From: Holophagales bacterium
Lineage (GTDB): Bacteria; Acidobacteriota; Thermoanaerobaculia; Multivoradales; JAGPDF01
Reading direction: 5' to 3'
DNA: 64,000 nt
NCBI GenBank assembly: GCA_016699405.1
Contig: CP064972.1
Location: 4,172,130 to 4,236,129, forward strand
Shown here: one piece after another, positions 666-26,312 of the stretch
Numbering within the stretch: position 1 is the first letter of the stretch
Layout of the letters: each line of letters begins with the position of its first letter
Program-made: the position numbers and the translations under genes
The notes under the pieces: generated by a model
Told to the model about the DNA's origin: nothing
The model's input: the letters and a program-made list of their open reading frames with translations, nothing else
Databases searched by the model: none

Positions 666-682
666 CCGGTAGCATCGGCACG

Positions 683-3241: not shown

Positions 3242-3376
3242 GACGACCGCACTACGCCTCGCGCCCGACGCGACGAAGCGCGCAAAAAGAGGCCTTCGCG
3301 CCGCTGCGACGACCCTGGCGCCGCATAGAATCCGTACCATCTCTTGGACAGTGCCCGAAGCGGGCAGGAGCGCGAC

Positions 3377-6300: not shown

Positions 6301-8770
6301 CGGTCTCTCGCGCCTGATCACCGCGCCGGCCGTCCTGCCGGTCGCGGTCGGCGAGGAGGGTCTCGTCGAGCTCGCCTCGTTCGGCGGCGCCGACGTGCGC
6401 GCCCGCCTGGTCGACGCCAACGACGAGCTCCTGGCGAGCGGCGACGACCGGCCGGGAGACTGGAACTTCGTCGTCGCCCGCAAGCTCGCGCCCGGCAACT
6501 ACCGCCTGCGCGTCGACCCGGTCGGTTCGGCGACCGCCGACACGACCGTCTCGATGCGCATGCCGCACGAGCGCGACGCCGAGACCTGGAAGCTCCCCGA
6601 GCCGCTGAAGATCGACCTCGCCGACGAGGCGGTGCGCATTCCGCTGCGACTCGGCAACGATGCCGACCTGCTGGCAATCGTGGCCGTCGCCGCCGAGCCG
6701 CTCGGTCTCGAGCTCGAGCAGCGCCAGTCTGGTGCCTGGCGGCTCCTCTCGAGCGCCGAAGGCACGACGCCGCGCCTGCTCCTGCCACTCGCCTCCGGCA
6801 GCCGACCGGAGCTCCGGCTCCGCCTGCGCTCCCTCGACCGTCGACCCGGCAGCGTCCGCCTCGCCGCCTTCGCCGGCCGCGCCCCACGCGCCAACGAGAA
6901 GACCCTGGCATCGGGTCTCGACTTGCCGCGCCTTCCCGGACTGCTCCCACCGGTCGCCGCCGCCGCGGTGACGCTCGACCGACCGGGATGCCTCGCCCTG
7001 GAGGCCGCACCGGAGGAGCTCCTGCACTCGCGGCGCGCCGGTGAGCCGCTCGCCGCACAGCCGGGCGCCCTCGTCGCCGACGGAACGCTCCTCTGGCTCG
7101 CCGCGCCGGCGGAATCCGCGGGTGCGATCCGGGTCACCGCGCGTCGCGCCGCGATCGGCCGCGAGGCGCTTTCGCTGCGGCTCGCCGCCGGCGAGCAGGT
7201 GCGCTGCGACCTCGCGCCCTCGAAGGGTCTCTCCTTCGTCGAGGCGCAGGCGCTCGCCGGCGAGCCGCTCGTCGCCGCACCGAGCGACGGTCAGCCGCCG
7301 GCGTTCGAGCGCGTCACGCTGACCGGCCGGCACCGGGCGTCCACCCTGGCCCGCTCCGGCAGTCACAGCGTGGTCGCGAGAAACGCCGGCAACACACCGA
7401 TCGAGCTGCGTCTCACCGCCGTGGCGCTCTCCTCGGCGCCAGCGCGGCCGTCGACTTCGCCCGGCGCCCACGAGCTCCGTCTCGCGGCTCGCAGCCTGCA
7501 GACGATCCCGCTCGGCAGTGCGGCGAAGTCGGTCCGTCTTGCGCTCGGCGAGGGCGCGGCGGCCTGGATCGGCAGCGAGAACGCTCCGGAGGCCTTCGGA
7601 TGGGCGTCCGACGAGACCGGGGAGGTGAGTCTCGCGACGACCGCACCGGCCCTCGTCCTGGTCAACCCGACCGAGGTCGAGATCGCCGCCCGGCTCGACC
7701 TGCGCGCGCCCGACCCGGACGACGCGAGCGTCGCGATCGGCCCCGGCGCTCGACTCGAACGGCGATTCCGTCGCGGCGGCGGCCTGCAGCTCCCCGTCCA
7801 GGCCGGAAGCGGTGCGGCCCGTCTCCACCTGCGCGGCGCCGAGGCGGTGCTGATCGGCGCCGACGGCTCGGTCGCCCGGGGTCACGAGCTGGCGCTGCCG
7901 GCCGGCGGCGGGACACTGCGGATCGAGCATCCGCCCGGACTGATGACGCTCTGGGTCGAGGGCAAGGACCACACCCTCGCCAGCTATGGATTCGCCGCCA
8001 GCGCTCCCCAGCAGGCGGCTCCGCCGCTGACCCTGGAGCTCGACGGCGCGGCCCGGCTCGTCGAGCTCCAGGTGGCGACCCCCGCCCTGCTGTCGCTGCG
8101 CTCGGCCTCGCCGCTCGCCGTCGCGCTGCTCGACGAGCACGGCGAGGTCCGACGCTTCGTGCCGTTCGAGCGGGAGGTCGCCTTCGATGCGCCTCTGGCT
8201 CCCGGCACGACACGTTTCGTCGTCCGGGCGCTCGCCGGCGAGCCGCTCACCGGACGACTCGAGGTCTCGCTCGGCGAGCTCGCGCCGCTCGGCGAAGGGC
8301 TCGGTGCGGCGACTCTCCTCGCCCCGGGCGAGGCCCGTGGCTATCGCTTCCAGGTCGAGCGTCAGGGACCTGTCGGTGTCGGCGCCCACGCGGATGCGGG
8401 GAACGTCGAGACGGTGGTCTTCGACTCGACGGGGACGCCGCTCGGCCGCGGCGTGGTGCAGTGGCTGGAGCTTTCGCCCGGCCCGTACACGATGGCGCTC
8501 GTCGGTCCGGCGGAGGCGAGCCCGGCGCTCGCCCGGCCGGCGCTCGTCGGCATCTCCAAGCCCGGGGAGGGACCGCCGGGCGATGTCGTCCGCAAGCTCC
8601 TCGAGCTCGACCGCGGCGGCCCGCCACCGGAGGGTCGTGGGGTGACCGGAGAGGAGGACGTGGCGTTCCCGTTCGGCCGCAACGCCAACCGTGAGATGGA
8701 ACAGGAACAGGAAGGCGAGACGGACGAGCCGTCCGCAGACGAGTCCGACGAGAGCGGAGGTGACCGATGA
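3377..8770 (+). CDS. large secreted repeat protein built from pre-peptidase-C-terminal-like β-sandwich repeats; function unknown
   Basis: ATG at 3377 is preceded by GGAG. N-terminal signal peptide (RLARLTLFALTSWLAGGIAAAQP). At least 10 degenerate repeats with the pattern D..(W/Y)RF.L…G.Y.L.V…, for example DPDRWRFTLPATTGVKISLD…GRYELAVRCS and GDYHLHAVRLGGHLDVRLEDD. Acidic C-terminal tail. The stop overlaps the next gene's start (ATGA at 8767-8770). Confidence 0.7.
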   Translation: MSTDLECALLRTRSGCGAGRLARLTLFALTSWLAGGIAAAQPGSPPTATPAAPPHLAQEKLPAAGRQATELVVGEFGRYSIRLESKQGVALQLVDRMSGPGELTGETGKRDGRLDLFLDRGAVRLLTFGPKLGRGDVRIAVSGFREIHAPEAPRLPELRLVTDELGDLEQASWWIELPERKQVVLEAAGRYLADLRLWQGGAWLVDAPPEHSQIEPVAGRPLHLCRLTADLEPGLYRLVAYGGTETAWARGGREKPLLLRYGIPRRGEAGRERMSVGPFGYERFLLPGSATLAQLELPEAGSATLELADFDPARPFEAWGQTGEITPESVPPLAQLTRESTDGNALLTVRGAVGQAYTLQHFRAERQVELTGDGDFWVGTVHSGTATDSIDASAVIFERGAKRTSALAGSMPVLSSSQGWARRFNLLAEATLFLQVAERAVYALDLNGAAQVRLEPLLLSAPDGYQVPPLRTAPTTWTLDKGLYVLTLVPTEAGIVDVAMRRKGLLDPMFDWVGLHQEPPATAALGAAQMTAIRLSRKLDYTLLVATQPGVDVGPVVRKLPLDLTEPLPLSLVPGQEIEVPFRATSRGRLTAPAEDGTALEVAVDGAAFAGMATVEPGTHRVRVRSRATDTLAASLALVSEEQASDTPMPRLDPAALAALPAFTTLTEPAPAAFDLARGESRTMLVEAASPALYTLETTGLLATSGAVRTRVQPRLASEEKNGSGRNVSLRSYLREGSYQFTVRALGESAGHLGARLRRAEVREGGRLVDGIAARTELPAGESIAYRFRVDREGDYHLHAVRLGGHLDVRLEDDQGFPPAAPVMSGDSTVHLLPGDYRLFVLPQAVPTRAVTVVERRVEAVERSGHGPFELALTREDGNLWLEPEQESSPRDPDRWRFTLPATTGVKISLDAEMEGDLRRLDRAPATGERLAFVAPGRGFAGELAAGRYELAVRCSRRNSQVRYRLSVAPDALVDGLSRLITAPAVLPVAVGEEGLVELASFGGADVRARLVDANDELLASGDDRPGDWNFVVARKLAPGNYRLRVDPVGSATADTTVSMRMPHERDAETWKLPEPLKIDLADEAVRIPLRLGNDADLLAIVAVAAEPLGLELEQRQSGAWRLLSSAEGTTPRLLLPLASGSRPELRLRLRSLDRRPGSVRLAAFAGRAPRANEKTLASGLDLPRLPGLLPPVAAAAVTLDRPGCLALEAAPEELLHSRRAGEPLAAQPGALVADGTLLWLAAPAESAGAIRVTARRAAIGREALSLRLAAGEQVRCDLAPSKGLSFVEAQALAGEPLVAAPSDGQPPAFERVTLTGRHRASTLARSGSHSVVARNAGNTPIELRLTAVALSSAPARPSTSPGAHELRLAARSLQTIPLGSAAKSVRLALGEGAAAWIGSENAPEAFGWASDETGEVSLATTAPALVLVNPTEVEIAARLDLRAPDPDDASVAIGPGARLERRFRRGGGLQLPVQAGSGAARLHLRGAEAVLIGADGSVARGHELALPAGGGTLRIEHPPGLMTLWVEGKDHTLASYGFAASAPQQAAPPLTLELDGAARLVELQVATPALLSLRSASPLAVALLDEHGEVRRFVPFEREVAFDAPLAPGTTRFVVRALAGEPLTGRLEVSLGELAPLGEGLGAATLLAPGEARGYRFQVERQGPVGVGAHADAGNVETVVFDSTGTPLGRGVVQWLELSPGPYTMALVGPAEASPALARPALVGISKPGEGPPGDVVRKLLELDRGGPPPEGRGVTGEEDVAFPFGRNANREMEQEQEGETDEPSADESDESGGDR

Positions 8771-11700
8771 ACGCCGAGACCTCGATCCACCCCGTTGACC
8801 GCGCGAGCGTCGCCGGTCCCTGGCGCGGAGCGACGTCGCGGCGCTCCGCCCGCGTCGCCCTCCTCGCTGCCGCGCTGGTGCTTACCAGCGGCCCGTGGCT
8901 CCAGGCCGCCGAATCCCCTGCGACGCCGCCGACGCGCCCGGCCCGTCCTGCGGCGTCCACCGGATCGACCGTCGTCGTGCCGGACCGCTTCCTGCGTCGG
9001 TGGGATCCGCTGACGGTCTTCTTCGCCGCCGATCTCGGCCCCTCGTCCGGCGGCCCCGAGGATCATCCCGAGCGCGTCGTGTCGATCACGCCGGCGCAGC
9101 CCGGCGCCTTCACCTGGCTCGACGCCCGCACCCTCCAGTTCCAACCCGCCGAGCCGTGGCCGGCGCTCGCCCGCGTCACCGTCAAGGCGGCGGAGGGGAC
9201 GTTCCGCCTGTCGACGCTGCTGTCGCCGCCGATCGCCTCGCAGCCCAGCGCCGGCGCGGAGGGTCTCGCGCCGGTCGACGAGATCGCGCTGACCTTCTCC
9301 GAGCCGCTCCCCGACGAAGCGCTGGCCCGCGCCCTCGCCATCGAGATCCGACCGCTCCCCGGCTTCGGTGAGGGCGGCGCTCGTGCTCTGGCGCGCGACG
9401 ACTTCGCCGTCAAGCGGCTGGAGCGCGGCAAGCCCTCGGATCCGGCAACCTACGTCCTGTCGCTGCGCCAGCCGATCGCCCTCGGCCAGCGCGTCACCGT
9501 GCGCTTCCGGCTCTCGCTCGACGAAGCGCCGGACAAGACCTTCGCCGAGCTCGTCTTCGCCACCGCCGAACCGTTCCGCGCCCTGCGTTTCGGCTGCCGG
9601 ATCGCCCAACTCCCGGTCGTCCCCGGCGGGGCGCGCTACACCGCCGAGCAGGCTCTCGCCTGTGAGGACGGCGACCCGGCGGTGGTCGTCGACTTCTCCG
9701 CCCTGCCGCGCGAGCTCGGTCCCGTGGCGGCACGCAATCTGGTGCGCCTCTCCCCCACCGTGCCGAACCTCGAGGCCAAGCTCTCGGGCAAGCGGCTCGA
9801 GCTGCGCGGCGACTTCGCGCGCGAAACCGCCTATCGCGTGTCGCTCGCGCCGACGCCGCTCACCGACGAGCGAGGCCGCAAGCTCGACCTGCAGGGACCC
9901 AACGAGCTCACCCTCGCCTTCCCGCGCGCTCCCTCCTATCTCCGATTGGCCTCGGGCTTCGGACTCGCCGAGCGGAACGGCCCGCAGATGATCCCGGTCA
10001 CCGGGCGCGGGGACGAGCGCGTCGACCTGCGCCTCCACCGCATCGAGCCGCTCGATCGCTCCTTCTGGCCGTTCGGCGACGTGCCCGTCGAGGTGGACGA
10101 GGGCGAGCGCCCGCCGGGACCGGGCGAGCGGCCCGAGCCGTGGAAGCGCGCCGACAGCGGTCCGCCGCAGGCCGAGCTGGCGCGGCGCATCGCCGCCCTC
10201 GGCTCGCCGCCGATCTCGGCGCTGGTCGACCTGCCGTTGCGTCGCGACGGAGGCACCGCGTCGTTCGGCCTCGACCTCGGGCCGCACCTCGCGCGGCTGG
10301 CTGGCGCCGGCGAGCCCGGCACCTATCTCGTCGGCCTGCGCCGCCTCGGCGCCTCGGAGAAGCGCTCCTGGATGCGCTTGCAGGTCTCCGATCTCGCGCT
10401 CACCACGCTCGAGGAGCCGCACCGCGTCGTCTTCGCCGTGACCTCGCTCGCCTCGGCGTTGCCGGTGGCCGGAGCCCAGGTGACCGTCGAAGGGACCGAG
10501 TGGGCAGGCAGCAAGGCGTCCTGGGTCGAGCTCTTCCGCGGCTCGACGGACGGCACGGGGCAGGTCGTCTGGACCGCCCCGGGACCGATGGAAGGGGGTC
10601 GCCGCAGCGTGCGGCGCATCGTCGTCAGTCGCGGCAACGACACTCTGGTGCTCGACCCCGAACAGGCGCCGGACGGCTTCGCCGACAACCGCTGGTCGCG
10701 CACCTACGGCGACTGGCTCGCCTGGACGCAGGAGTCGCTCGACGATCGTGGCGCCCACGCGGAGCGGCTCGCGCACCTCTTCACCGAGCGACCGGTCTAT
10801 CGCCCGGACGAACCGGTCCACGTCAAGGCGTTCCTGCGCACCCGCAGCGAGGGTCACCTCGAGCCGATCGCCGACGAGCTGCAGTTGGTGATCGAAGGAC
10901 CGGGCGATCTCGTCTGGCGCTATCGCGTCACGCCGAACGCGCTCGGCTCGGTCTACTGGAAGTTCGACGAGAAGGACCTGCCGACCGGCACCTACCGTGC
11001 CCACTTCGAGCCGCTCGACGGCGGCGAGGAGGTCTCCGGTGCCGTCGCGTTCCGCAAGGAGGCCTACCGTCTCCCGCGCTTCGAGGTGCGACTCGACGGA
11101 CCCGATCGCGCACCGCTCGATCGCGAGCTCGACGTCAAGCTCACCGCCACCTACTACGCCGGTGGCCGGGTCGCCGCGCGACCGATCGAATGGCGGGTCA
11201 CGCAGTTCCCCTACGATTGGTCGCCCAAGACGCGCCCGGGATTCCTCTTCTCGTCCGACTCGCGCTTCTCGCGCGAGAGCCGCTTCGAGTCGACCCCGGC
11301 GATCGAGCAGGCAGGGGTGACCGACGAAGACGGCGGCGCCAAGCTGACGATCAATCCGGCGATCGAACCGACCTCGCAGCCTCGCACCTACGTCGTCGAG
11401 GCGACGGTGGTCGATGCCGACGACATGACGGTCAGCGCCACGCGCCAGGTCGTCGCGCTTCCGCCGATCCTCCTGGGACTGAAGGTTCCGCGCTACGTCG
11501 AACGCGCCGGGACGCTGCGTCCGCAGATCCTCGTGCTCGGTCCGGACGACAAGCCGGTGGCCGGCCAGTCGGTGACGGTACGGCTCTCGCAACGGCGCTG
11601 GCACTCCTATCTGCGCGCCTCCGACTTCTCCGACGGCGTGGCGCGCTACATCACCGAAGTGGTCGACGAGAAGCTCTCGGAGTCCGTCGTCACCAGTGGC

Positions 11701-14676
11701 ACGGACGCCCTCGACGTTCCGCTCGAACTGCCCGAGGCCGGCGTCTACGTCGTCGAGCTCGAAGCGCGCGATCGGCTCGGTCGCGCCCAGACGATGGCCG
11801 TCGACCTCTTCGCCGGCGGTGGCGAGCCGGTGGCCTGGCCGAAGCCGGCGACCGCCGTCTTCCAGGTCACCCCGGACAAGGCTCGCTACGAGCCCGGCAC
11901 GACCGCACGACTGGTCCTGCAGAGCCCGTTCCAGAGCGGCGAGGCGCTCTGCGTCGTCGAGGCACCGGACGGCAACCGCTACTCCTGGCTGCCGGTGCGC
12001 GGCGGACAGGCGGTCTTCGAGCTCCCGGTCGACGGCAGCTTCACGCCGCGCGTTCCCGTTCACTTCCTGCTGCTGCGTGGACGCCTGCCCGGAAGCGCGC
12101 CGGTTCCCGGCAACGCCACCGACCTCGGGCGCCCGGCGACCTTCGGCGCCACCGTCTGGCTCGATGTCGAGCCGACGGCTCATCGGCTCTCCCTCGAGCT
12201 CGCCTACCCGGCGCAGGCACGGCCGGCGCAGGAGATCGACGTCGCCATCACCCTGAAGGACCCGGCCGGCAAACCGCTCGCCGGCGAGGTCACGCTCTGG
12301 CTCGTCGACCAGGCGGTCCTGGCGCTCGGTCGCGAGCAGCGGCTCGACCCGGTACCGAGCTTCCTCACCGCCGTGACGAGCTACTTCTCGGCTCGCGACA
12401 CGCGCTCGCTGGTCTTCGGCTACCTGCCGTTCGCCAAGCAGCCCGGCGGCGACGAGGGCGAAGAGAGCAAGTCGCTGCTCGACCGGCAGACGGTGCGCAA
12501 GAACTTCCAGCCGGTGCCGTACTACAACCCGGCGATCGCCGTCGGGCCGGACGGCGTCGCCCGCGTCAAAGTGAAGCTCCCCGACGACCTGACCAATTTC
12601 ATGCTGCGCGCCAAGGCGGTCGCCGGCAACGAGCGCCTCGGCTTCGCCACGGGCAAGATCGAGGTTCGCCAACCGGTCGTCCTGCAACCCTCGCTGCCCC
12701 GCTTCGTCCGGCCAGGCGACCTCTTCTCGGCCACCGCCGTCGGCCGCCTGCTCGAAGGGGCCGCCGGCGCCGGACGTGCCGAGGCGCGACTCGAAGGGCT
12801 CGAACCGCGAGGGGAGACGCACGCGACCTTCGAGTGGACGGCCAATCGCCCGACACGGCTCGACTTCCCGGTCTCCGTGCCCACACCCGGCTACGACGCC
12901 GAGGGCCGGCTGACGCGACGCGAGGTGGTCGTGCGCATGGGTGCCGAACGGACGAGCGATAACGCCGGCGATGCCTTCGAGGTCCGCCTGCCGATCCGCG
13001 ACGACCGCGATCGCGTCGTCCTGCGCGCCCTCGGCGAGCTCAAGGCGGGCGAGGCGTGGAAGCTCCCGGAGCCCACAGAAGCGACGCGACCCGGCTCGCT
13101 CAAGCGCAAGCTCCTGGTGTCGAACGACCCGGCGCTCGCCGCCATGTCCGCCGGCCTCGACTTCCTCCTCGCCTACCCCTACGGCTGCACCGAGCAACGG
13201 CTCGCCACCACGCGCGCCCAGGTGGCGCTCAAGCGGTTCCGCGAGTTGCTCCATCTCGAGGGAGGAGAGAAGCAGCTCGACCGCGCGGTGGCCGACACGA
13301 TGGCCTGGCTGCCGCTCGTCCAGCAGCCGAGCGGGCTCCTGTCGTACTGGCCGGGCGGCTCCGCCTCGGTGTCGCTGACCGCGTGGGCCGCCGAGTTCCT
13401 CGCCGAAGCGCGCGACGCCGGCTACACGGTCGATGCGGGCGTCGAGGAGCGGGCGCTGCGCGCACTGGCCCAGGCGCTGCGCTCCGACTACTCCGGCTTC
13501 CTCGACGGCGAGGCCTGGGCGGAGCGCACCTGGGCGCTACGCGCGCTGGCGCGTTCCGGCAAGTTCGACCCGGCCTACGGCAACGAGCTCGCGCGACGCG
13601 CCCAGATGCTCGACCTCGAGAACGTGGCGAGCGTGCTCACCGCGTTCGACCGCGCCGGCAAGGGCGACTCGCCGGCGCTGCCGCCGCTCGAAGAGACGTT
13701 GTGGAAGGGGTTCGTCGTGCGGCTCTGGCAGGGTCGGGAGACCTACGGCGGGCTGCAGACCGGCCGGCGCGCCGCAAGCTCGCTCATCCTTCCTTCGGAG
13801 ACCCGGACGATCGCCGAGATGACGCGCGCGCTCGTTCCGCGTGCTTCCGGAGCCGAAGAGGAGAAGCGGCTGGCCATCCTCAGCGACGCCCTCGTCGCGC
13901 TCGGGCGCGGCGATGGCTGGGGCTCGACCAACGCCAACGCCGCGGCGATCCTCGCCCTCTCCGAGCTCCTCGCGCACGGACGGCCCGGCGCACCGGAGGC
14001 GAGCGCGACACTGCGCACCGTCGACGGCGAGCGGCACCTCGCGCTTTCCGAGCGCGAGCCGACCGCCTACTGGACGTCGACGCGGCCGGGAGCCGCCGAG
14101 CTGATGCTCGCCGCGACAGGAGCCGGCAAGGTCCTGGCGCGCGCCGAGGCGAGCTACCTGCCCGCCGCCGACGGGAGCCAGGCGGCGGCACGGCGGGACG
14201 GCTTCGTGGTCACCCGCGAGCAGCTGGTGCTGCGCGGCGAAGCGGCCCCGGGCAGCGCGATCGTGCCGGAGCGGATCGCTCTCGACCAGCCGGGCAAGAG
14301 CGTGGCACTCACCGTCGGCGAGGTGGTCGAAGAGCACGTGCAGGTCGTCAACCCGCAGGACCGCACCTACGTCGCCGTGGCCGTGCCGCTCGCCGCGGGG
14401 TTCGAGCCGCTCAACCCGAACCTCGAGACGGCACCGCCGGAGGCCAAGCCCGCGGGCCAGCTCACCTTGGCGCCGACCTACGCCTCGTACCTCGACGACC
14501 AGGTGACCTGGTACTTCGACTCGCTGCCGAAGGGCACCTACGACTTCTACTTCCGCGTTCGTGCCCAGATCCCCGGCAGCTTCATCCAGCCGCCGGCCAA
14601 GGCCGAGGCGATGTACGACGCCAGCCAGATCGGCACCAGCCCCGGCGCGCGGGTGGAAGTGAGGCCGAAGCCGTAG
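8767..14676 (+). CDS. bacterial alpha-2-macroglobulin family protein (thioester-containing, YfhM/ECAM-like)
   Basis: 1,969 aa. GGAGG RBS. Signal peptide. Thioester motif GCTEQ encoded at 13183-13197 (…AYPYGCTEQRLATT…). Size and MG-domain-like N-terminal region are typical of bacterial A2M. Confidence 0.85.
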   Translation: MNAETSIHPVDRASVAGPWRGATSRRSARVALLAAALVLTSGPWLQAAESPATPPTRPARPAASTGSTVVVPDRFLRRWDPLTVFFAADLGPSSGGPEDHPERVVSITPAQPGAFTWLDARTLQFQPAEPWPALARVTVKAAEGTFRLSTLLSPPIASQPSAGAEGLAPVDEIALTFSEPLPDEALARALAIEIRPLPGFGEGGARALARDDFAVKRLERGKPSDPATYVLSLRQPIALGQRVTVRFRLSLDEAPDKTFAELVFATAEPFRALRFGCRIAQLPVVPGGARYTAEQALACEDGDPAVVVDFSALPRELGPVAARNLVRLSPTVPNLEAKLSGKRLELRGDFARETAYRVSLAPTPLTDERGRKLDLQGPNELTLAFPRAPSYLRLASGFGLAERNGPQMIPVTGRGDERVDLRLHRIEPLDRSFWPFGDVPVEVDEGERPPGPGERPEPWKRADSGPPQAELARRIAALGSPPISALVDLPLRRDGGTASFGLDLGPHLARLAGAGEPGTYLVGLRRLGASEKRSWMRLQVSDLALTTLEEPHRVVFAVTSLASALPVAGAQVTVEGTEWAGSKASWVELFRGSTDGTGQVVWTAPGPMEGGRRSVRRIVVSRGNDTLVLDPEQAPDGFADNRWSRTYGDWLAWTQESLDDRGAHAERLAHLFTERPVYRPDEPVHVKAFLRTRSEGHLEPIADELQLVIEGPGDLVWRYRVTPNALGSVYWKFDEKDLPTGTYRAHFEPLDGGEEVSGAVAFRKEAYRLPRFEVRLDGPDRAPLDRELDVKLTATYYAGGRVAARPIEWRVTQFPYDWSPKTRPGFLFSSDSRFSRESRFESTPAIEQAGVTDEDGGAKLTINPAIEPTSQPRTYVVEATVVDADDMTVSATRQVVALPPILLGLKVPRYVERAGTLRPQILVLGPDDKPVAGQSVTVRLSQRRWHSYLRASDFSDGVARYITEVVDEKLSESVVTSGTDALDVPLELPEAGVYVVELEARDRLGRAQTMAVDLFAGGGEPVAWPKPATAVFQVTPDKARYEPGTTARLVLQSPFQSGEALCVVEAPDGNRYSWLPVRGGQAVFELPVDGSFTPRVPVHFLLLRGRLPGSAPVPGNATDLGRPATFGATVWLDVEPTAHRLSLELAYPAQARPAQEIDVAITLKDPAGKPLAGEVTLWLVDQAVLALGREQRLDPVPSFLTAVTSYFSARDTRSLVFGYLPFAKQPGGDEGEESKSLLDRQTVRKNFQPVPYYNPAIAVGPDGVARVKVKLPDDLTNFMLRAKAVAGNERLGFATGKIEVRQPVVLQPSLPRFVRPGDLFSATAVGRLLEGAAGAGRAEARLEGLEPRGETHATFEWTANRPTRLDFPVSVPTPGYDAEGRLTRREVVVRMGAERTSDNAGDAFEVRLPIRDDRDRVVLRALGELKAGEAWKLPEPTEATRPGSLKRKLLVSNDPALAAMSAGLDFLLAYPYGCTEQRLATTRAQVALKRFRELLHLEGGEKQLDRAVADTMAWLPLVQQPSGLLSYWPGGSASVSLTAWAAEFLAEARDAGYTVDAGVEERALRALAQALRSDYSGFLDGEAWAERTWALRALARSGKFDPAYGNELARRAQMLDLENVASVLTAFDRAGKGDSPALPPLEETLWKGFVVRLWQGRETYGGLQTGRRAASSLILPSETRTIAEMTRALVPRASGAEEEKRLAILSDALVALGRGDGWGSTNANAAAILALSELLAHGRPGAPEASATLRTVDGERHLALSEREPTAYWTSTRPGAAELMLAATGAGKVLARAEASYLPAADGSQAAARRDGFVVTREQLVLRGEAAPGSAIVPERIALDQPGKSVALTVGEVVEEHVQVVNPQDRTYVAVAVPLAAGFEPLNPNLETAPPEAKPAGQLTLAPTYASYLDDQVTWYFDSLPKGTYDFYFRVRAQIPGSFIQPPAKAEAMYDASQIGTSPGARVEVRPKP

Positions 14677-14724: not shown

Positions 14725-14898
14725 ACCGCCGTCGCCGTGTCGCAAATGACTGACGTAGCTCCACTTGCCAAGTCCCTGGCACCTTTCTTGGCGGGCTGAG
14801 GTCGACGCTCGCGGTCACCTCCCGTCCCGTTCTCCAGCAACCCGGCCGATGCCGGTCACCTGGCGGAAGATCGCCAAGAAGGATCGAGGCCCGCGGCC

Positions 14899-15729
14899 TC
14901 AGACAATCCAGAATCTGACCTGCTGCTCCTCGAGGAAGCTCCGCGCTCCGCTGCCCTGGAGGTAGGCGAGGGTCGAGAGCGTACCGGCCTCGAGACAGGA
15001 ACGGGCGACGACGGTGACCGACCGCGGGGCGCCCTGGACCGGCCAGCCGGTGCGTGGGTCGAGGATGTGGCCGAGGCGCTTGCCGCGCCAACGCACGAAG
15101 CGTCGGGCATCGCCGCTGGTCGCCAACCCCGCGCAGGCGAGGTCGAGGCGAACCAGGGCAGCCCGGCCGGAGCGTTCCGGGTCGTCGATCCCGATGCTCC
15201 AGGTGCGGCCGCCCCGTCGGAGATGGCCGACGCAGAGGTCGCCGCCGAAGTTCACCACCGTCGAGGCCGAGGAGCGAGCGGCGAGCAGCGCCGCCACCCG
15301 GTCGACGGCGTACTCCTTGCCGAGGCCGCCGAAGTCGATCTCCATCCCCGCCGGCAGCGTGAGCTCGGGATCGCTCCAGCCGACCTTCGACCACCCCACG
15401 AGCGCGAGACACTCGCCGATCGCCCGCGCCGACGGGATCTGCGTGCCACCGTCGAACGACCAGATCCGCCGCAGGACTCCCGAGGTGATGTCGAACCGCC
15501 CGCCCGAGAGCTCCCAGCAGGTGGCGGCGTAGTGGAGCAACTGCGCGGTCTCCTCGTCGACGCAGACCGGCCGGCCCCCTGCGAGATGGATCTGGTGGAC
15601 GACGCTGTCATCACGATAACGGCTGAACTTGCGCTCGACGCGCCGCGCTTCCTCCGCCGCGATCGCGACGAGCGCCGTCGCCTCCTCGCGATCGTCGGTG
15701 TCGACGAGGACCGAGCAAGGGCTCGCCAT
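14899..15729 (-). CDS. apbE: FAD:protein FMN transferase (ApbE family)
   Basis: ApbE-like sequence throughout (…RRVERKFSRYRDDSVVHQIN… matches the conserved ApbE N-terminal region; …GGLGKEYAVDRV…). No hydrophobic signal peptide lies upstream of Met-15729, so the protein is possibly cytoplasmic or its start is mis-set. Confidence 0.75.
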   Translation of the reverse strand: MASPCSVLVDTDDREEATALVAIAAEEARRVERKFSRYRDDSVVHQIHLAGGRPVCVDEETAQLLHYAATCWELSGGRFDITSGVLRRIWSFDGGTQIPSARAIGECLALVGWSKVGWSDPELTLPAGMEIDFGGLGKEYAVDRVAALLAARSSASTVVNFGGDLCVGHLRRGGRTWSIGIDDPERSGRAALVRLDLACAGLATSGDARRFVRWRGKRLGHILDPRTGWPVQGAPRSVTVVARSCLEAGTLSTLAYLQGSGARSFLEEQQVRFWIV

Positions 15730-15831
15730 CGCCGAGAACCGTCCGACGAAGTAGTCCTCGACGCGCTCGGTCGCCGGAGGCAGCTCCGGCGACCGGGCGA
15801 CGTCGTGCGGGCGAGCGGACAGGAGCGGCCC

Positions 15832-17127
15832 TCAGAAGCGGCGCGAGTAGGCAACGACCAGCGCGACGCTGTTGACTCCCGGCGCCAGGTCGAATCGGCG
15901 CTGCACGCCGATCGCGCCGTCCGGCGAGCCGTCCCCCTGTTGCCGGATGTAGTCCGCCCGCACCGTCCATTCCCCGGGGCTCTCGAACGCCCGGAAGGTG
16001 AAGGCGGCTCCCAGGGTGACCGAGCTCAGCTTGCCCAGCCGGTAATCGGCGGTGGCGAACTCCGGCAGATCGGCCCCTTGGACCAGCCCGGCGGTGAAGA
16101 AGTTGGCCGCCGTCTGCTGATAGAGCCGCAGCCGCGGCTCGAGGTACCAGCCGTCGCCGAGGTCGTGTCGGTACTTCAGCTCGAGGGTGTGGGAGCGCAC
16201 GTCCCACGAGTCCCAGTAATAGCGGTAGGTGCTGTAGAAGATGTCGTCGGTCAGATGGTAGACCGAGCTCAGCAGCAGCGAGTTGCGGTCGCGCGTCGAC
16301 GGCCGCTTGTCGGTGAGCTGGCCGACCGGAACGCCGGTGCGCGGGTCCATCAGGCTGATCACTTTGTACGGCTCGGTGAGGTAGCCCCGCTCGGCGGTGC
16401 GCGAGGCGTCGAGCGCCACCATCCAGCGGCGCGAGAGGATGCGCGACAGGCCGAACAGCACGCTCGTCGAGCGCTTCGAGTTGTTCCGGTCGACGAGCAC
16501 GTTGCCGTCGGAAAGACCCTCGGGTGTCCCGCCGAGGGGCGAGACGCGGTCCTCGTTGACGCCGGCTCCGACGGTGAGGGTGAAGAGCTTCTGCATCAGG
16601 TCGAAGGTGACCTTGCCGTTCGCCCCGAGCGACTCGTAGTCCTTCTCGTGGGAAGCGTGCAACCCGATCGTCGAGGCCGCGAGCCTGCCGAGAGGCGCCT
16701 GCCATTCGCCGTCGAGCGCCACGCGCTGGTCCTGAAAGTCGTTCAACGGGATCTCTCCGGCGGCCGAGGTGGTGACGCGACCGGAGGCACTCGTGTGCGT
16801 CTGCACGCTGCCCGACGGCAGCGCGCCCGTCGGCGAGGCGCCGGTGATCACGTCCACGGTGAGCTGCCCCGAGAGCGACTGCCCGTTGCCGAACAGGCGC
16901 GACGCGCGCACGATCGGTTCGTAGACCTGCGCCCGGCCCTGCTCGCCGTAGAGCAGGGTCGTGATGTCGAGCTGGTTGGCCGGCTGCGTCGACTCGGCCG
17001 AGGCGGCCGCGGGAACCAGCAGCAACGCGAGCGCTGCCTTGCCCAGTCGGTCGCGGAGCGACGGCGTGACCTCGCCGCCCGGAGCCGGCGCGGTGGCGGC
17101 TGCGGCGTCTCTTTCCTCTAGTTGCAT
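15832..17127 (-). CDS. DUF3570-family protein (predicted outer-membrane β-barrel), carries candidate flavinylation motif
   Basis: Signal-peptide-like N-terminal region (LGKAALALLLVPAAASAES). Alternating β-strand pattern. C-terminal …VVAYSRRF with terminal Phe. DVITGAS is encoded at 16834-16854. Confidence 0.7.
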   Translation of the reverse strand: MQLEERDAAAATAPAPGGEVTPSLRDRLGKAALALLLVPAAASAESTQPANQLDITTLLYGEQGRAQVYEPIVRASRLFGNGQSLSGQLTVDVITGASPTGALPSGSVQTHTSASGRVTTSAAGEIPLNDFQDQRVALDGEWQAPLGRLAASTIGLHASHEKDYESLGANGKVTFDLMQKLFTLTVGAGVNEDRVSPLGGTPEGLSDGNVLVDRNNSKRSTSVLFGLSRILSRRWMVALDASRTAERGYLTEPYKVISLMDPRTGVPVGQLTDKRPSTRDRNSLLLSSVYHLTDDIFYSTYRYYWDSWDVRSHTLELKYRHDLGDGWYLEPRLRLYQQTAANFFTAGLVQGADLPEFATADYRLGKLSSVTLGAAFTFRAFESPGEWTVRADYIRQQGDGSPDGAIGVQRRFDLAPGVNSVALVVAYSRRF

Positions 17128-17348
17128 CCGCAGCCTCCGCCTCCGACGTCCTGACCGCCCATCGACGCCTCCTTGCTGAAGTAGATGTGGTCGTCGATGC
17201 CGCGCAGCATCGGGCAGGGATTGAACCGCATCCCCTTCTCGGCGAGCAGGTCACGGTCCCACGGACGCACGCTCGCGCACCCGGCGAGCGCACCGGCGAG
17301 AAGCAGCGTGGCGGCTGCACGCGGCAGCCAGGTCGACAGGTCTCTCAT
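17118..17348 (-). CDS. DUF4266-family lipoprotein
   Basis: 76 aa. Lipobox LAGC. Family-typical C-terminal GGGGCGCN. 10-nt overlap with the downstream DUF3570 gene. Its start overlaps the tlpA-like stop (ATGA). Confidence 0.7.
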   Translation of the reverse strand: MRDLSTWLPRAAATLLLAGALAGCASVRPWDRDLLAEKGMRFNPCPMLRGIDDHIYFSKEASMGGQDVGGGGCGCN

Positions 17349-17881
17349 CTCGCGACGGCCTCCTCGATCCGTCTCTCGATCGCTTCCTCGTCTCGCACGG
17401 CGAATCCGGCATGTTCGAACACGATCCGGCCGTGGCGGTCGACGACATAGCTCGACGGCATGGTCGAGACGCCGTACGCCTCCGCCGTCGTGCCTGCCGG
17501 GTCGAAGGCCACGGTGAAGCTGGGCGAGAACTCGCGCAGAAAGGCCGCGGCCGGCTCCCGCCGCTTGTCGAGATTGATCGCCACGACCACCAGACCGGAC
17601 GAGCGGTAGCGCTCGGCCATCGTCGACAGCCAGGGGAACGACTGCCGGCACGGTCCACACCACGAGGCCCAGAAGTCGATCAAGACCACCTTGCCGCGCA
17701 GCGACTCGAGCGAGACCGGTCCGCGCTCGGTCGGCAGGTCGAAGGCCGCCGCGGACGCCGGCACGGTTGCCGCGGCCCCCTCCGGAGGACGGCGGCGCGC
17801 CTCGGCGGGCGGCGCCAGGAGCGTCGTGAGGAGCAGGAGGGTGAGTCTGGCGAGCGAGCGGATCCCGTGGGCTTCGCGGCG
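17345..17881 (-). CDS. thioredoxin-like thiol:disulfide oxidoreductase (TlpA/ResA family)
   Basis: WCGPC active site (…VVLIDFWASWCGPCRQSFPW…). N-terminal membrane anchor or signal (IRSLARLTLLLLTTLLAPP). Start codon is uncertain; the ATG-based ORF extends to 18031 through an R/S-rich stretch that is probably not coding. Confidence 0.7.
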   Translation of the reverse strand, partial: RREAHGIRSLARLTLLLLTTLLAPPAEARRRPPEGAAATVPASAAAFDLPTERGPVSLESLRGKVVLIDFWASWCGPCRQSFPWLSTMAERYRSSGLVVVAINLDKRREPAAAFLREFSPSFTVAFDPAGTTAEAYGVSTMPSSYVVDRHGRIVFEHAGFAVRDEEAIERRIEEAVAR

Positions 17882-18078
17882 AAGCGATCGGGTGGAGGAA
17901 AAGAGAGCGGTGCGCACGGGTTGGCGCGGCGAGCAAGAGCGGTGCCAGGCCGACGACGCCGAAAGGGCACCGCTCGCGGGGTCCGATGTCGTCATCCCGG
18001 GACAGCTCCGTCGCTTTTCGAGACGGTGCATCGAGGGACAGCAGGTCGATCTCGCGATGGCGGAAGGGTCGAGCCGTC

Positions 18079-21286: not shown

Positions 21287-23254
21287 TCAGGTGCGCGCCG
21301 CGCCGGACGGCGGACCGCCTTTCGACCCGCCCGTCGGAAGCCACTGCGTGTGGGCAGCGGTGGCGAAGGCGTCGTCGGGCCGGGTCGAGACCGGAGAGGC
21401 CGGGAGCTTCCAGACGGCGTCGCGGACGCGCACCCAGTCGACGAGCTCGGCGACGGTCTCCGCCGCCTCGGGTCGCTTCTCCGGGTCGCGCTCGAGCAGG
21501 CGATGGACCAGCGACGCGAGCCGCGGCGGAATTCCGGGCACCAGATCGGCGAGCGGACGGATCCGCGCCGACAGCGTGCGCTCCATCACCTCCGAAGTGC
21601 GCGGCGCAGCGAACGGCTGCTCGCCGGACAGGGCGGCGTAGAGCACGACGCCGAGCGAGAAGAGGTCGCCGCGCGGAGTGAACGGTTCGGAGAGAAAGAC
21701 CTCGGGCGGCACAAAACCCGGCGTGCCGAAAATCCGTCCCGGCTCGGCACGGGCCGCCGAGGCGACGAACGCCGCGAGCCCGAAGTCGACGACCTTGATC
21801 GCGCCATCGCGCCCGAGCAGCACGTTGCCGGGCTTGATGTCGCGATGCACGACGCCCTGCGCGTGCGCCAGCTCGAGCGCCCGGGCAACGGCGAGGCCGA
21901 GGCAGGCGGCGGGATCGGCGCCGAGGCGGCCGACCTCCCAGAGCAGCAGCTCGAGCGTCTTGCCTTCGACGAGCTCCATGGCGATGAAGGCACCGCTCGG
22001 CGACGCGACGGCGTCGTAGACCGCCACGACGTGCGGGTGGGTGAAGCGAGCGATGGTCGTTGCCTCGCGCAACAGCGCGGCGATCCGCTCGTCGCGCTCC
22101 AGCTGGGCGACGGCCGAGTCGAGACGCAACGTCTTGAGGGCCACCGGTCGCTCGAGGCGCGGATCCCAGCCGCGATAGACCATCCCCATGCCGCCCACGC
22201 CGAGCGCCTCGACGACCTGGTAGCGGCCGAGGAAGACGCGCGAGAGGTCGTCGCGATCGGCCACGCCGCGCGCCAGCCGGGCGAAGCCGGCCTCGAGCTG
22301 CTCGATCTCCGAGCCGCTGGCCGCCGCGCCGCCGGCCGCCCGCTGCGCCTCGAGCATCCGCCGCACCGGGCGCACGATGGTGATCCACGCCCCCTGCGCC
22401 GCGAGCGCCACCAGCGCCAACGCCGCGGCGATGGCGAAGAGAGCGCGCCGCCGCATGCGCCACGCCGCCGCCTCGGCGACCGCGGCGCTCTGCCGCGACA
22501 GCACGACCCAGGAGGATCCGGCCACCGGCGCCCAGGCCCCGAGCTGACGATCGCCGCCCCGGCTCTCTGCCTGCTGGGCTCCGCGCGCCCTGCCGGCGAG
22601 CGCCATCTGAACCACCGTGGGCGGCATTTCGTCGAGCGTTTCCAGCGGCCCGGCGAGCACCGCCCCCGAGCGATCGGCGAGCACCAGCACCGCATCGTCG
22701 CCGAGCTCCTCGGGACGCAACAGGTCCCCGAGTCCGCCACCCGCGGCGACGAGACGCACCGCCCCGCCACCGCTCGGACGGTCGACGATCACCAGCAGGT
22801 CGGCGCGCTCGCCCAGCCCACGGACCCCGGGCTGGAGCGGCAGGCCGCGCACCCGTTCACCCGCCGCGCGAGCGACCGGCGACGCAAGCTGCGCCCGCAC
22901 CCCTTCCCGCCCCTCGCCATCGACCAGGGCGAGCGCGAGCGCGCCGAGGTCGGCCCACGACGAGAGGCTCTCGCCGAGAAGACGTCGCGCCGCCGTCCCG
23001 TCGGCCTCGGCGAGCTCCGGGCGCGCGGCGAGCGAGGAGACGAGGGCGGAGCGGGTGGCGAGCCAGGACTCGACCCGCTCGGCCGTCGCCCGCGCCGCCA
23101 CCACGTGACTGCGCAGGACCTGCTCGGTCATCGCCTCCCGGTTGAGCGAGACGAGCTGCCAGGAGACGAGCCCGAGCGGCAGCAGCGCGACGAGCGCGAG
23201 CGCCGCCGCGACGCGTGCGAGCAGCCCCGAACCCCGGCGCCGTGGCCAGCTCAC
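21287..23254 (-). CDS. sensor serine/threonine protein kinase (N-terminal TM-periplasmic sensor-TM, C-terminal Hanks kinase)
   Basis: GVGGMGMVYRG…VALK, HRDIKPGNVLL, DFGLA and GTPGFVPPE motifs. Two transmembrane segments flank a periplasmic domain of about 230 aa. GTG start with GTGA overlap onto the upstream FHA-EAL stop. The rest of track ORF 21287..26698 is read-through artefact. Confidence 0.8.
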   Translation of the reverse strand: MSWPRRRGSGLLARVAAALALVALLPLGLVSWQLVSLNREAMTEQVLRSHVVAARATAERVESWLATRSALVSSLAARPELAEADGTAARRLLGESLSSWADLGALALALVDGEGREGVRAQLASPVARAAGERVRGLPLQPGVRGLGERADLLVIVDRPSGGGAVRLVAAGGGLGDLLRPEELGDDAVLVLADRSGAVLAGPLETLDEMPPTVVQMALAGRARGAQQAESRGGDRQLGAWAPVAGSSWVVLSRQSAAVAEAAAWRMRRRALFAIAAALALVALAAQGAWITIVRPVRRMLEAQRAAGGAAASGSEIEQLEAGFARLARGVADRDDLSRVFLGRYQVVEALGVGGMGMVYRGWDPRLERPVALKTLRLDSAVAQLERDERIAALLREATTIARFTHPHVVAVYDAVASPSGAFIAMELVEGKTLELLLWEVGRLGADPAACLGLAVARALELAHAQGVVHRDIKPGNVLLGRDGAIKVVDFGLAAFVASAARAEPGRIFGTPGFVPPEVFLSEPFTPRGDLFSLGVVLYAALSGEQPFAAPRTSEVMERTLSARIRPLADLVPGIPPRLASLVHRLLERDPEKRPEAAETVAELVDWVRVRDAVWKLPASPVSTRPDDAFATAAHTQWLPTGGSKGGPPSGAART

Positions 23255-24390
23255 GGCAGCTCCTCCGGCAAGGGCGCCGGACGGCCGAAGTGGAACCCCT
23301 GACCATGGGAGAAGCCGAGCTCGGCGCAGCAGCGCGCCTCCCCGGCCGTCTCGATCCCCTCGGCGACGGTTTGCAGGCCGAGCCGGCGCGCCGCGTCCAC
23401 CAGGGCGGCGACGAACTGCCGCCGGGGCTCGCCGGCACGATCGATCCCGCGGACGAGCTGGAGATCGAACTTGAGAAACTGCGGCGGCACCTCGAGGATC
23501 TCCTGCAAGCGGGCGAGGCCGGCGCCGAAGTCGTCGTAGGCCAGGCCCATGTCGAGTGCCGCGAGCTCCTCGCGCAGGATTCGCAGGCGCTCGACCGGCA
23601 TCGCCAGCTGTTCGCTGATCTCGACGACGACACGGCGCCCGGGGTGAGCGCGCCGCATCGCGCGGAACGAGGCGACGAGACGGCGCGTCTCGAGCTCCCC
23701 GGCGTTGACGTTCAGGAAGAGCAGCGACTCCGGCGGGAGATGGCGGGCCGCATGAAACGCGTCCTGGCGGAGGAGCTCGGTCAGCTCGACGTCGAGGCCG
23801 ACCTCCTCGGCGATCGAGAAGAGCCCGAGCGGGGACTCCGGAAGGTCCTCGTCCCGTCCGAGGCCGAGCGCCTCGTAGCCGATCCGTTCGCCCTCCGGCA
23901 GCCGCACGATCGGCTGGAAGCGCGACTCGACCCGCCGCTCGTCGATCAGCCGGCGCAGGCTTCGCGCCTCTTCGATCCGGCTGCGCAGGCGCGGCATGGC
24001 GCAGGGCGGCGAGCTCAGCGTCGTCGTCTCGAGCCAGACACGATCCTGCTCGCCGGTCAACCGCCCGAGCCGGAACTCGAGATCGGCGAAGTGGACGATG
24101 TCTCCTTCGGCGAACACCGTCTCGCCGGTCAGCCGGACCCCGTTGAGGTAGGTGCCGTTCGTCGAGCCGAGGTCGCGCAGCAGGAGCGCGGCCGGGCCGC
24201 GACGGATCTCGGCATGTTCGAGCGAGACCTGCGGCGACGGCAGTGCGAGGTCGAGATCGGAACGACGACCGACGCGGCAGGGCAGGCGCGCCAGCGCGAG
24301 CCGCCAGAGCTGACGCGAGGAGGGCTCGATTCCCTCGAGGTACCACTCGAACGACGCGGGTCCGGAGCTCGTCATCGGAGGCTGCCACAC
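23251..24390 (-). CDS. FHA domain-EAL domain protein (c-di-GMP phosphodiesterase with phosphothreonine-binding FHA)
   Basis: FHA region (…LRDLGSTNGTYLNGVRL…), then an EAL domain with the EAL, DDFGAG and EGIET motifs. Confidence 0.8.
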   Translation of the reverse strand: MWQPPMTSSGPASFEWYLEGIEPSSRQLWRLALARLPCRVGRRSDLDLALPSPQVSLEHAEIRRGPAALLLRDLGSTNGTYLNGVRLTGETVFAEGDIVHFADLEFRLGRLTGEQDRVWLETTTLSSPPCAMPRLRSRIEEARSLRRLIDERRVESRFQPIVRLPEGERIGYEALGLGRDEDLPESPLGLFSIAEEVGLDVELTELLRQDAFHAARHLPPESLLFLNVNAGELETRRLVASFRAMRRAHPGRRVVVEISEQLAMPVERLRILREELAALDMGLAYDDFGAGLARLQEILEVPPQFLKFDLQLVRGIDRAGEPRRQFVAALVDAARRLGLQTVAEGIETAGEARCCAELGFSHGQGFHFGRPAPLPEELP

Positions 24391-24508
24391 GAGGTGAGCG
24401 AACGCTGCCCACGTCGATCGACTGGCTTATCATAAGGGCAACCGTTCGAGTCAGGCCGGGTGCCGGACCGCGCTTGCCGGTCCATGCTCCGACGACGAGG
24501 AGACCTCC

Positions 24509-26266
24509 ATGCGCCAAGCTCACGCGACGATCTGCCCGGCTCTTCTCCTCCTGCTCGGCGGAGCGCTCGCGGCCGGCGCGAGCGAGCTCCAGCCCCAGGG
24601 TTGGCACGTCGTGCGCCCCGGCGACACACTCCTCGATCTCACCCGCACCTACACCGGCTCGACCGACCCCTGGAGAGACAACTGGGGGCTCAACACCTTC
24701 GTGCAGGATCCCGACCTGCTGCAGCCCGGCTGGCGCCTGCGCCTGCTCCTCCAGCCGGCGCACTCGCGGCCCGCGGCACAGCTCGTCCAGCTCGCGCGAC
24801 GCGTCGAGAGCAAGCCCGCGCCGCAGCCGTGGGGTCCCGCTCAGGTGGGCGACCTGCTGCTCGACCGTGACGCGGTGCGGACCTTCGACGGCGCCTCGAC
24901 CGAGCTCGCCTTCACCGACGGCGGCCATCTGCGCCTGACCGAGCGTTCGCTGGTCTTCCTCGTCCGCCCCACGCAGTCTGTCGCCAGCGCCCGCCGCGGT
25001 GTCGAGATCGTCGAAGGCGAAGCCGACCTCCAACTCGGCGACGCCGGAGCGGCACGGCGCGAGGTCGAGGTCGTGGCCGGCAGTGCGCGCGCCGCGCTGC
25101 GCACGGCGCCCGGCTCCGAGGCCTCCTCGCGCACGCGACGCGCCGTCGCGGGCGGTTCGCAGTGGATGATCTACCAGGGTGACGCGACGCTCGCCGCCGG
25201 CGGCAAGCGCGTCGAGCTCGCCGCCGGCACCGGCAGCACGGTCGCCGCGAAGTCTCCGCCGACGCCGCCCGAGGCCCTGCTCCCGGCGCCGGCGCTGCGA
25301 CCGACCCACGGCTCGGCGACGGTCGCGGCCCATCTCGAGCTCGCCTGGGAGGCGGTGCCGGGCGCGGCCCGTTACATCGCCGAGCTCTGCCCGGATTCCG
25401 CCTGCGGCGTCGTCCTGCAACGCGTGACGGCCCTCGCCGAGCCGCTCTGGCGGCCGGAGCCGATCGAACCCGGCGACTACTACTGGCGCGCCAGCGCGGT
25501 CGCCCCCTCGGGGCTCGACGGCTTCGCGGCCCCGGCCCAAGCACTGAGCGCCCTCGACCACGAGCCCGACACGCTGGCTCCCGAGGCGCGCCTGGGAGTC
25601 GGCGGCCCCCACGTCGAGATCGACGGCGAACCGGTCTTCTCCGGCGAGGCGATCGTCCAGCTCACGGCGAGCGACGAGGGCAGCGGCGTGGCACGGCGGA
25701 CGCTTCTCGTCGACGGCACCGCAGCCGAGGAGTCGCGGCTGCGCGGACCGTGGGCGAGCGGCGAGCATCGGGTCGAGGCGCGCGTCGCCGACCGCGCCGG
25801 CAACGAAGCGGTCGTCGGGCCGTTGATCTTCACCGTCGACGCCGACGCCCCGCAGATCGAGCTCGAACCGGCGACCGCGGGATCCGACTCGAACGGCGTC
25901 TGGCGGATGCTCAGCGAGCTCTCGTGGACCGCCGATCAGGGATGGAGCGCCTGGCGCTGGATCTCCGGCGAGCGTCGCCTGCACCGCGACCTCGTCCGCG
26001 GGGCCTGGAGCCTCGGGGGCGGCGAGCCGACGCTCTCGCTCGCGTGGCGCGGCACGCCGCACGTCAGCGGCGATGGCACGCAGGCGATTCCCGGTGGCCC
26101 GTCGCTCGCCTTCACCGCACGCGATGCCGGATCCGGGGTCGCGACCTTCCGACTGCGGCCGAAACAGCGGCGTGAGGGCGATCGGCAGATCCTCGTGCTC
26201 CGTTTCGACAGCGCCGACCGGCTCGGCAATCGCCGGGTGCTGACGCTCGAAGTCCGTCCCGATTGA
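24509..26266 (+). CDS. secreted LysM-FecR domain protein with C-terminal Ig-like/β-sandwich region
   Basis: GAGGAG RBS. Signal peptide. LysM (WHVVRPGDTLLDLTRTY). FecR-like region (…DAVRTFDGASTELAFTDGGHLRL…). Confidence 0.7.
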   Translation: MRQAHATICPALLLLLGGALAAGASELQPQGWHVVRPGDTLLDLTRTYTGSTDPWRDNWGLNTFVQDPDLLQPGWRLRLLLQPAHSRPAAQLVQLARRVESKPAPQPWGPAQVGDLLLDRDAVRTFDGASTELAFTDGGHLRLTERSLVFLVRPTQSVASARRGVEIVEGEADLQLGDAGAARREVEVVAGSARAALRTAPGSEASSRTRRAVAGGSQWMIYQGDATLAAGGKRVELAAGTGSTVAAKSPPTPPEALLPAPALRPTHGSATVAAHLELAWEAVPGAARYIAELCPDSACGVVLQRVTALAEPLWRPEPIEPGDYYWRASAVAPSGLDGFAAPAQALSALDHEPDTLAPEARLGVGGPHVEIDGEPVFSGEAIVQLTASDEGSGVARRTLLVDGTAAEESRLRGPWASGEHRVEARVADRAGNEAVVGPLIFTVDADAPQIELEPATAGSDSNGVWRMLSELSWTADQGWSAWRWISGERRLHRDLVRGAWSLGGGEPTLSLAWRGTPHVSGDGTQAIPGGPSLAFTARDAGSGVATFRLRPKQRREGDRQILVLRFDSADRLGNRRVLTLEVRPD

Positions 26267-26312
26267 GCGCCGCGGGTTCGACGATCGGCGGCGGACGCGA
26301 GACGACCGCGGC

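Follow-up and report, generated by a model that had tools for sequence, protein, structure and literature searches.

A cluster of four co-oriented genes on the minus strand of the Holophagales bacterium contig CP064972.1 is very probably a Thermoanaerobaculia-type version of the DUF3570 flavinylation module known from the literature, in which a barrel protein modified by ApbE would work together with a thiol relay. The four open reading frames (ORFs) lie between positions 14899 and 18031 of the 64,000-nucleotide stretch analyzed here (hereafter called the window) and encode a TlpA-like thioredoxin, a DUF4266 lipoprotein, a DUF3570 protein and ApbE. Méheust et al. (2021; eLife 10:e66878, PMC8238504) named DUF2271 and DUF3570 as new ApbE substrates, reported conserved [S/T]GA[S/T] motifs in 228 ApbE-associated DUF3570 proteins and showed that the DUF3570 protein of Chlorobium luteolum is flavinylated on co-expression with its cognate ApbE, loss of the flavin requiring that both motif serines be changed to Ala; the flavinylated protein was recovered in the insoluble pellet. 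The same study counted clusters of genes for ApbE, for DUF3570, for a thioredoxin-like protein and for DUF4266, 227 of them next to DsbD and 316 without it, noted the C-terminal CxC of DUF4266 and proposed a hybrid thioredoxin/flavin system for electron transfer whose function is unknown (PMC8238504). The original prediction for this locus had been made from the DNA letters and held that a barrel carrying flavin mononucleotide (FMN) would represent a new class of extracytosolic flavoproteins, a class that had already been described and tested in 2021 (PMC8238504); its biological core, namely that DUF3570 is a substrate of ApbE even though it has no FMN_bind domain, is supported by motif conservation and by the homologue experiment. 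With this locus, a known system gains a further orthologue, in a Thermoanaerobaculia-like genome. Two of its details look unreported, the signal-less ApbE and the predicted position of the flavin site, at the outer end of a barrel in the outer membrane: the word 'barrel' and the location of the ApbE of DUF3570 clusters are absent from PMC8238504, a 2024 follow-up alludes to the outer-membrane location of flavinylated domains without treating DUF3570, and a 2023 preprint merely lists three neighbour families in passing.

Pfam matches bear out the four families as originally named. The DUF3570 protein (431 residues, 15832-17127, minus strand) matches PF12094 with an E value of 1.5e-86 and 291.3 bits vs. 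a cut-off of 25, over profile positions 3-426 of 427, and the DUF4266 lipoprotein (76 residues, 17118-17348, minus strand, in agreement with the gene caller) matches PF14086 with an E value of 1.4e-17 and 64.8 bits vs. a cut-off of 27; NCBIfam has no specific model for either. The ApbE family gene (14899-15729, minus strand, with its frame open back to 15831) matches PF02424 with an E value of 2e-65. The TlpA/ResA-like thioredoxin (17345-17995, minus strand), which carries an N-terminal hydrophobic segment, matches the Redoxin, AhpC-TSA and Thioredoxin_8 families with E values from 1e-21 to 1e-15. Its ORF starts at ATG 17995, the choice of the gene caller, or at the alternative ATG 18031; position 17881, first given as the end of the feature, falls on an Arg codon inside tlpA and is not a start codon.

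The case for flavinylation centres on the motif D92-V-I-T-G-A-S98 of DUF3570, which is encoded at 16834-16854 (minus strand), as had been read originally. Within the coding-like ORFs of the window (~16,800 residues) the pattern D..[ST]GA[ST] occurs once; its chance level is 0.007 per protein by composition, and 143 of 20,000 shuffles of the DUF3570 sequence (0.7%) contain it. The match is no accident. Its conservation, which the original prediction had singled out for verification, was analyzed in two sets of sequences: 120 DUF3570 homologues with 56-70% identity, the closest of which are annotated as Thermoanaerobaculia, and 143 full-length representatives with no more than 50% identity to each other; a profile search of 1.84 billion representatives returned 2,734 relatives. 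D92, G96 and S98 are present in all 120 homologues and T95 in 119 of them, with position 97 occupied by Ala in 104 and Ser in 16. The more divergent set yields the near-invariant consensus D-x-[LMIV]-[TS]-G-A-[ST]-P-x-G-A, in which D92, G96 and G101 are found in 143/143 sequences, [ST]98 in 142/143, [TS]95 in 139/143 and A97 in 125/143.

Within the seven-residue motif, FMN goes onto the last Ser or Thr, and the seven residues suffice for modification even as a peptide tag (PMC12052999). Ser98 is therefore the predicted acceptor in the window protein, and not Thr95 (PMC12052999). The window DUF3570 holds a single [ST]GA[ST], since the tandem position downstream, residues 100-103, reads TGAL; among the 143 representatives, the corresponding x-G-A-x ends in Ser or Thr in only 31. 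One of these representatives (P0222) reads DSLSGASPSGAS at the tandem, in keeping with the pair of serine sites reported for C. luteolum. We infer from this tandem pattern, rather than from the C. luteolum sequence itself (ABB24424.1), that the second site of the latter would lie at 100-103.

The original description of DUF3570 as an outer-membrane β-barrel with a C-terminal Phe agrees with both the sequence and a structural model. The N-terminal region (16993-17127, minus strand) contains a Sec-type signal peptide with the hydrophobic core AALALLLVPAAASA followed by ES, and 63 of 78 homologous loci share an N-terminal hydrophobic segment (maximum KD(11) of at least 2.0); the second and third residues, Q2 and L3, are invariant because the overlap with the 3' end of DUF4266 is conserved. 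The terminal Phe of the window protein is matched by Phe or Tyr in 112 of the 120 homologues. AlphaFold2, run on an alignment of 26 sequences, gave a model with a predicted local distance difference test score (pLDDT) of 70.8, a predicted template modelling score (pTM) of 0.70 and 16 long strands, so that DUF3570 is predicted to be a 16-stranded outer-membrane barrel. The even-numbered connections between strands measure 2-7 residues, whereas the odd-numbered ones measure 3, 28, 2, 21, 29, 4, 28 and 19 residues; in the model this corresponds to short periplasmic turns, long external loops and two periplasmic termini, the usual pattern of outer-membrane proteins. Residues 92-98 would then sit at the extracellular end of strand 3, where the 28-residue loop 2 begins, a placement read from strand parity and topology alone.

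The other two proteins of the cluster carry conserved cysteines. The WCGPC motif of the thioredoxin-like protein is confirmed at 17648-17662 (minus strand), and W-C-x-P-C is kept in 76/76 loci with a tlpA match. The NCBIfam models for ResA, DsbE and TlpA all match this protein under their equivalog cut-offs (ResA with 86.8 vs. 170 bits), and on such scores it is a member of the family not assignable to a named orthologue. The DUF4266 lipoprotein combines an LAGC lipobox with a Gly-rich C-terminal tail that ends in C-G-C-N (GGGGCGCN, the ending reported originally), with CGC encoded at 17124-17132; of 79 loci, 78 have a C-terminal CxC, the ending being GGGGCGCN in 59 of them. The earlier suggestion that the thioredoxin and the Cys-rich lipoprotein form a redox relay agrees with the relay proposed by Méheust et al. 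(PMC8238504).

The order tlpA-DUF4266-DUF3570-apbE is kept in essentially all of 80 genome loci compared (Thermoanaerobaculia, Eisenbacteria and scattered other bins), wherever the contig allows, and it is also found in three clades in which DUF3570 is only 30-33% identical. The four-gene synteny, another point marked for verification in the original prediction, thus recurs across phyla. All-against-all clustering of the flanking ORFs in the 80 loci found no further family in more than six of them. In the window, tlpA and DUF4266 overlap by 4 nucleotides (ATGA) and DUF4266 and DUF3570 by 10, which suggests translational coupling. A GC-rich, terminator-like hairpin over the apbE stop codon (14885-14901, minus strand), with a stem of seven pairs (five G-C) and a T-rich tail behind it, is the probable end of the operon. 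The identical locus is present on a 5.5-kb public contig, where gene calls give the same four genes. A promoter scan of the locus returned no match and is uninformative at the G+C content of the window, which is ~72%.

On these grounds we favour the following scheme. DUF3570 would be exported by means of its Sec signal peptide and then fold into the 16-stranded outer-membrane barrel, and the ApbE encoded directly downstream would move FMN from flavin adenine dinucleotide (FAD) to Ser98. The CxxC of the TlpA-like protein and the C-terminal CxC of DUF4266 would give or take electrons by thiol-disulfide exchange, and, at the outer membrane, the flavin bound to the barrel would turn this two-electron chemistry of thiols into that of flavins. 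Because no DsbD is encoded nearby, the inner-membrane source of electrons would have to be encoded elsewhere in the genome. In this scheme, the direction of electron flow and the final acceptor are matters of inference, and the flavin itself would be located, judging from the model, at the extracellular end or in the lumen of the barrel.

Several observations weigh against this reading. The flavin on the window DUF3570 is predicted only, having been shown just for the C. luteolum homologue. The AlphaFold2 model is moderate in confidence, with pLDDT values of 55-63 in the loop after the motif, a part of low confidence that could fold into the lumen. No DsbD (PF02683) or membrane electron donor was found by Pfam in 30 further ORFs of the window, a scan that fell short of every ORF because crude gene calling based on G+C at third codon positions (GC3) left gaps. 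The start of apbE in the window is ambiguous, its only canonical ATG appearing to be internal to the fold. The metal site of the enzyme is also altered, since the position equivalent to D280 of E. coli Ftp is Gly in 69/69 of the ApbEs linked to DUF3570. Finally, no hydrophobic segment is present in the 70 codons upstream of the ApbE domain in any of 72 loci, even though the same scan is positive for the neighbouring DUF3570 (63/78), DUF4266 (72/75) and TlpA (73/75) proteins. The ApbEs of three distant clusters (L083-L085) are likewise short (273-301 residues) and signal-less. An enzyme without a signal next to an exported substrate puts the site of the reaction in question.

The original prediction had taken a strictly cytoplasmic ApbE alongside an exported DUF3570 as evidence against flavinylation. 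The sequences do appear to present this combination, but it cannot refute the modification, given the experimental flavinylation of a homologue. The most economical solution is that the unfolded chain is flavinylated, because ApbE lacks a signal and the site would be unreachable in the assembled barrel; judged from the sequences, the reaction would probably take place in the cytoplasm, before export. This is compatible with a tag of seven residues being sufficient and with the labelling of the insoluble C. luteolum protein. SecYEG translocates precursors that bear dyes of similar size. A broader proposal, which we put forward only tentatively and consider rather unlikely as a whole, is that a dedicated cytoplasmic subfamily of ApbE, marked by the Gly variant and the missing signal peptide, flavinylates the DUF3570 precursor ahead of Sec export, that the chain with its FMN is then translocated and folded by BAM so that the flavin comes to lie in the lumen or at the extracellular end, and that the Gly-rich CxC tail of DUF4266 would pass electrons to the flavin from the periplasmic side, the ensemble forming a haem-free electron conduit across the outer membrane.

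It is conceivable, if improbable, that ApbE is exported without an N-terminal signal, by a non-classical or piggy-back route, and modifies DUF3570 in the periplasm before its folding by the BAM machinery. Such a route would accord with the precedents, as all extracytosolic substrates characterized earlier are modified outside the cytoplasm and Salmonella ApbE needs a periplasmic location for its function (PMC12052999). However, the sequence of ApbE lacks an export signal, with neither a twin-arginine motif nor a hydrophobic stretch in the ApbEs linked to DUF3570 that were examined, and cytosolic ApbEs acting on cytosolic substrates are on record, for instance in Klebsiella pneumoniae (PMC12052999).

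The catalytic regions of ApbE bear on whether the protein is a flavin transferase at all. The blocks T-S-G-D-A-R-R and G-H-I-L-D/N-P-x-T-G are retained and invariant, as are T204, G206, R210, H221, L223 and G228 in 69 sequences; in the alignment, the counterparts of H221 and R210 in FmnB (chain 7esa) are H253 and R242, which would correspond to FmnB His273 and Arg262 if the numbering is offset by +20. The ligands of metal site 1 in E. coli Ftp are D280 and T284. The equivalent motif in the ApbEs linked to DUF3570 is [E/Q]-A-G-x-L-[S/A]-T (window residues 247-253, within LEAGTLST), which retains the Thr (T253, 69/69); Gly instead of Asp, with Glu or Gln two residues before it, is also found in the three distant ApbEs and in a fused protein discussed below (P0134). 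The window ApbE scores 95.7 bits vs. the cut-off of 498 bits for the NCBIfam ApbE equivalog.

This low score, the loss of the metal-ligand Asp throughout the subfamily and the lack of an export signal might together indicate that the motif of DUF3570 is kept for structural reasons and that the adjacent ApbE-like protein is not its flavin transferase, being instead a cytoplasmic FAD-binding or FAD-hydrolysing protein, or an enzyme with a cytoplasmic substrate. We judge this very improbable. The His and Arg blocks are invariant, the adjacency of apbE and DUF3570 is strict across phyla, and the recognition motif is near-invariant at every position, with an acceptor hydroxyl in 142/143 representatives. 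Moreover, the cognate ApbE of a DUF3570 cluster did flavinylate its DUF3570 in the experiment (PMC8238504), and the Gly variant and the missing signal, being common to three distant clusters, look like general properties of ApbEs linked to DUF3570.

The beginning of apbE deserves separate consideration. In the window this gene shares the frame of DUF3570, with a single TGA between the two, and no ATG, GTG or TTG occurs in its frame between the DUF3570 stop codon and Met-15729. The caveat attached to the original prediction, that no signal peptide is evident upstream of this Met, is thus borne out and extends to the start codon itself. The intervening 102 nucleotides (15730-15831, minus strand; 34 codons) have a GC3 of ~0.91 and a G+C at second codon positions of ~0.53 by hand count, and look like coding sequence in the apbE frame for a conserved N-terminal segment of the protein. 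In the solved TM1553 ApbE, structured residues 17-26 are the aligned counterpart of the upstream stretch DYFVGRFSAM, and in a comparison of 73 loci the amino acids of codons -13 to -1 are conserved although the third positions vary (R in 67/73, G in 65/73, F in 70/73 and A in 72/73). The Met itself is Leu in six of the 73 loci. On these grounds, Met-15729 is internal to the fold and not the general start of ApbE. In most loci an apbE start codon lies 15-35 codons ahead of the conserved Met; the window and three others (L007, L019 and L024) are without one. Candidate non-canonical starts in the window are CTG 15822-15820, with GAGGG six bases upstream, and CTG 15783-15781, which is close to the position of the ATG start in locus L004. 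Translation of apbE may accordingly begin at a CTG, or by re-initiation after the DUF3570 stop.

The in-frame position of apbE after a single TGA, the coding-like character of the 34 intervening codons and the lack of a canonical start before the internal Met could also be explained by a DUF3570-ApbE fusion, arising from TGA read-through or stop loss, which would be exported via the DUF3570 signal peptide and flavinylated in the periplasm; indeed, a 9.7-kb metagenome contig (P0134; ENA sample ERZ27301951) has an ORF of 717 residues that matches PF12094 as well as PF02424 and lies downstream of genes for thioredoxin-like and DUF4266 proteins. We have rejected this explanation as extremely improbable, since the in-frame arrangement with the same stop is found in only 16/73 loci, fewer than the one-third expected by chance, the rest having apbE in a different frame or overlapping DUF3570; apbE has a start of its own in most loci, the terminal aromatic residue of DUF3570 would be buried by an extension at the C-terminus, and P0134 is the only fused ORF among 150 representatives, perhaps an artefact of sequencing or gene calling.

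Considered as an ApbE-modified barrel with a thiol relay, the window cluster resembles the 'DsbD system' clusters such as that of C. luteolum in the four families, the [S/T]GA[S/T] motif and the CxC of DUF4266, and belongs to the published subset (316 clusters) without an adjacent DsbD; two sites had to be mutated in the C. luteolum protein, whereas the window DUF3570 has a single acceptor site. With the NqrC and RnfG systems, in which an FMN_bind domain is modified by a periplasmic lipoprotein ApbE, it shares the motif, the last Ser or Thr as acceptor and the enzyme family, but its substrate is a predicted barrel and its ApbE has neither a lipoprotein signal nor an equivalent of E. coli D280. 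The cytosolic ApbE of K. pneumoniae, which acts on a soluble fumarate reductase, is similar in lacking a signal peptide (PMC12052999); its substrate is cytoplasmic, whereas the only neighbouring substrate candidate in the window has a Sec signal peptide and an outer-membrane fold. The sequence identity of DUF3570 to the 16-stranded barrels CdiB/FhaC, PelB, BcsC and PgaA is only 5-14%, and DUF3570 differs from these barrels and from the MtrAB porin-cytochrome conduit in lacking POTRA and TPR domains as well as haems. The comparison with MtrAB is one of function: in DUF3570 the redox cofactor would be covalently bound to the barrel itself.

In the window, the cluster is flanked by a large convergent ORF on the plus strand, which ends at 14676, and by a divergent proB gene. 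The plus-strand region 3329-14676 contains a 1,969-residue ORF with a thioester-like GCTEQ motif, which has the look of an α-2-macroglobulin, preceded by a 1,813-residue ORF with no Pfam match; a PBP1C-type penicillin-binding protein (Transgly, Transpeptidase and BiPBP_C domains) is encoded 11.5 kb further on, at 26244-28718 (plus strand). Other ORFs of the window combine an FHA and an EAL domain, the latter of a cyclic-di-GMP phosphodiesterase (23251-24426, minus strand), or contain the Plug domain of TonB-dependent receptors (PF07715; 1,045 residues, 58265-61402, minus strand), with no barrel-domain match at the threshold used. A gene for a ferrous-iron transporter of the VIT1 family (50803-51726, minus strand; PF01988, E value 8e-66) is 33 kb from the cluster, a distance at which no link can be claimed; VIT1 has been found inside 25 DUF3570 clusters (Méheust et al. 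2021, PMC8238504). In the closest genome relative (L082, positions 1-7091 of a 949-kb contig), the cassette lies directly downstream of a co-oriented haem-biosynthesis operon with hemC, hemD/hemB, hemE, hemN and a protoporphyrinogen-oxidase-like gene, an operon that is found upstream of the cassette neither in the window nor in most other loci.

What retains interest in this orthologue of a known module is the paradox of compartments, the altered metal site of ApbE, the start codon of apbE and the predicted outer-membrane position of the flavin. If flavinylation does precede export, it would be the first case of its kind for ApbE, and the view of this envelope protein modification as a periplasmic event would need revision. 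If the flavin is indeed located at the outer end of the barrel or in its lumen, the DUF3570 module would be a candidate for a cytochrome-free route of electrons across the outer membrane, for example in iron reduction.

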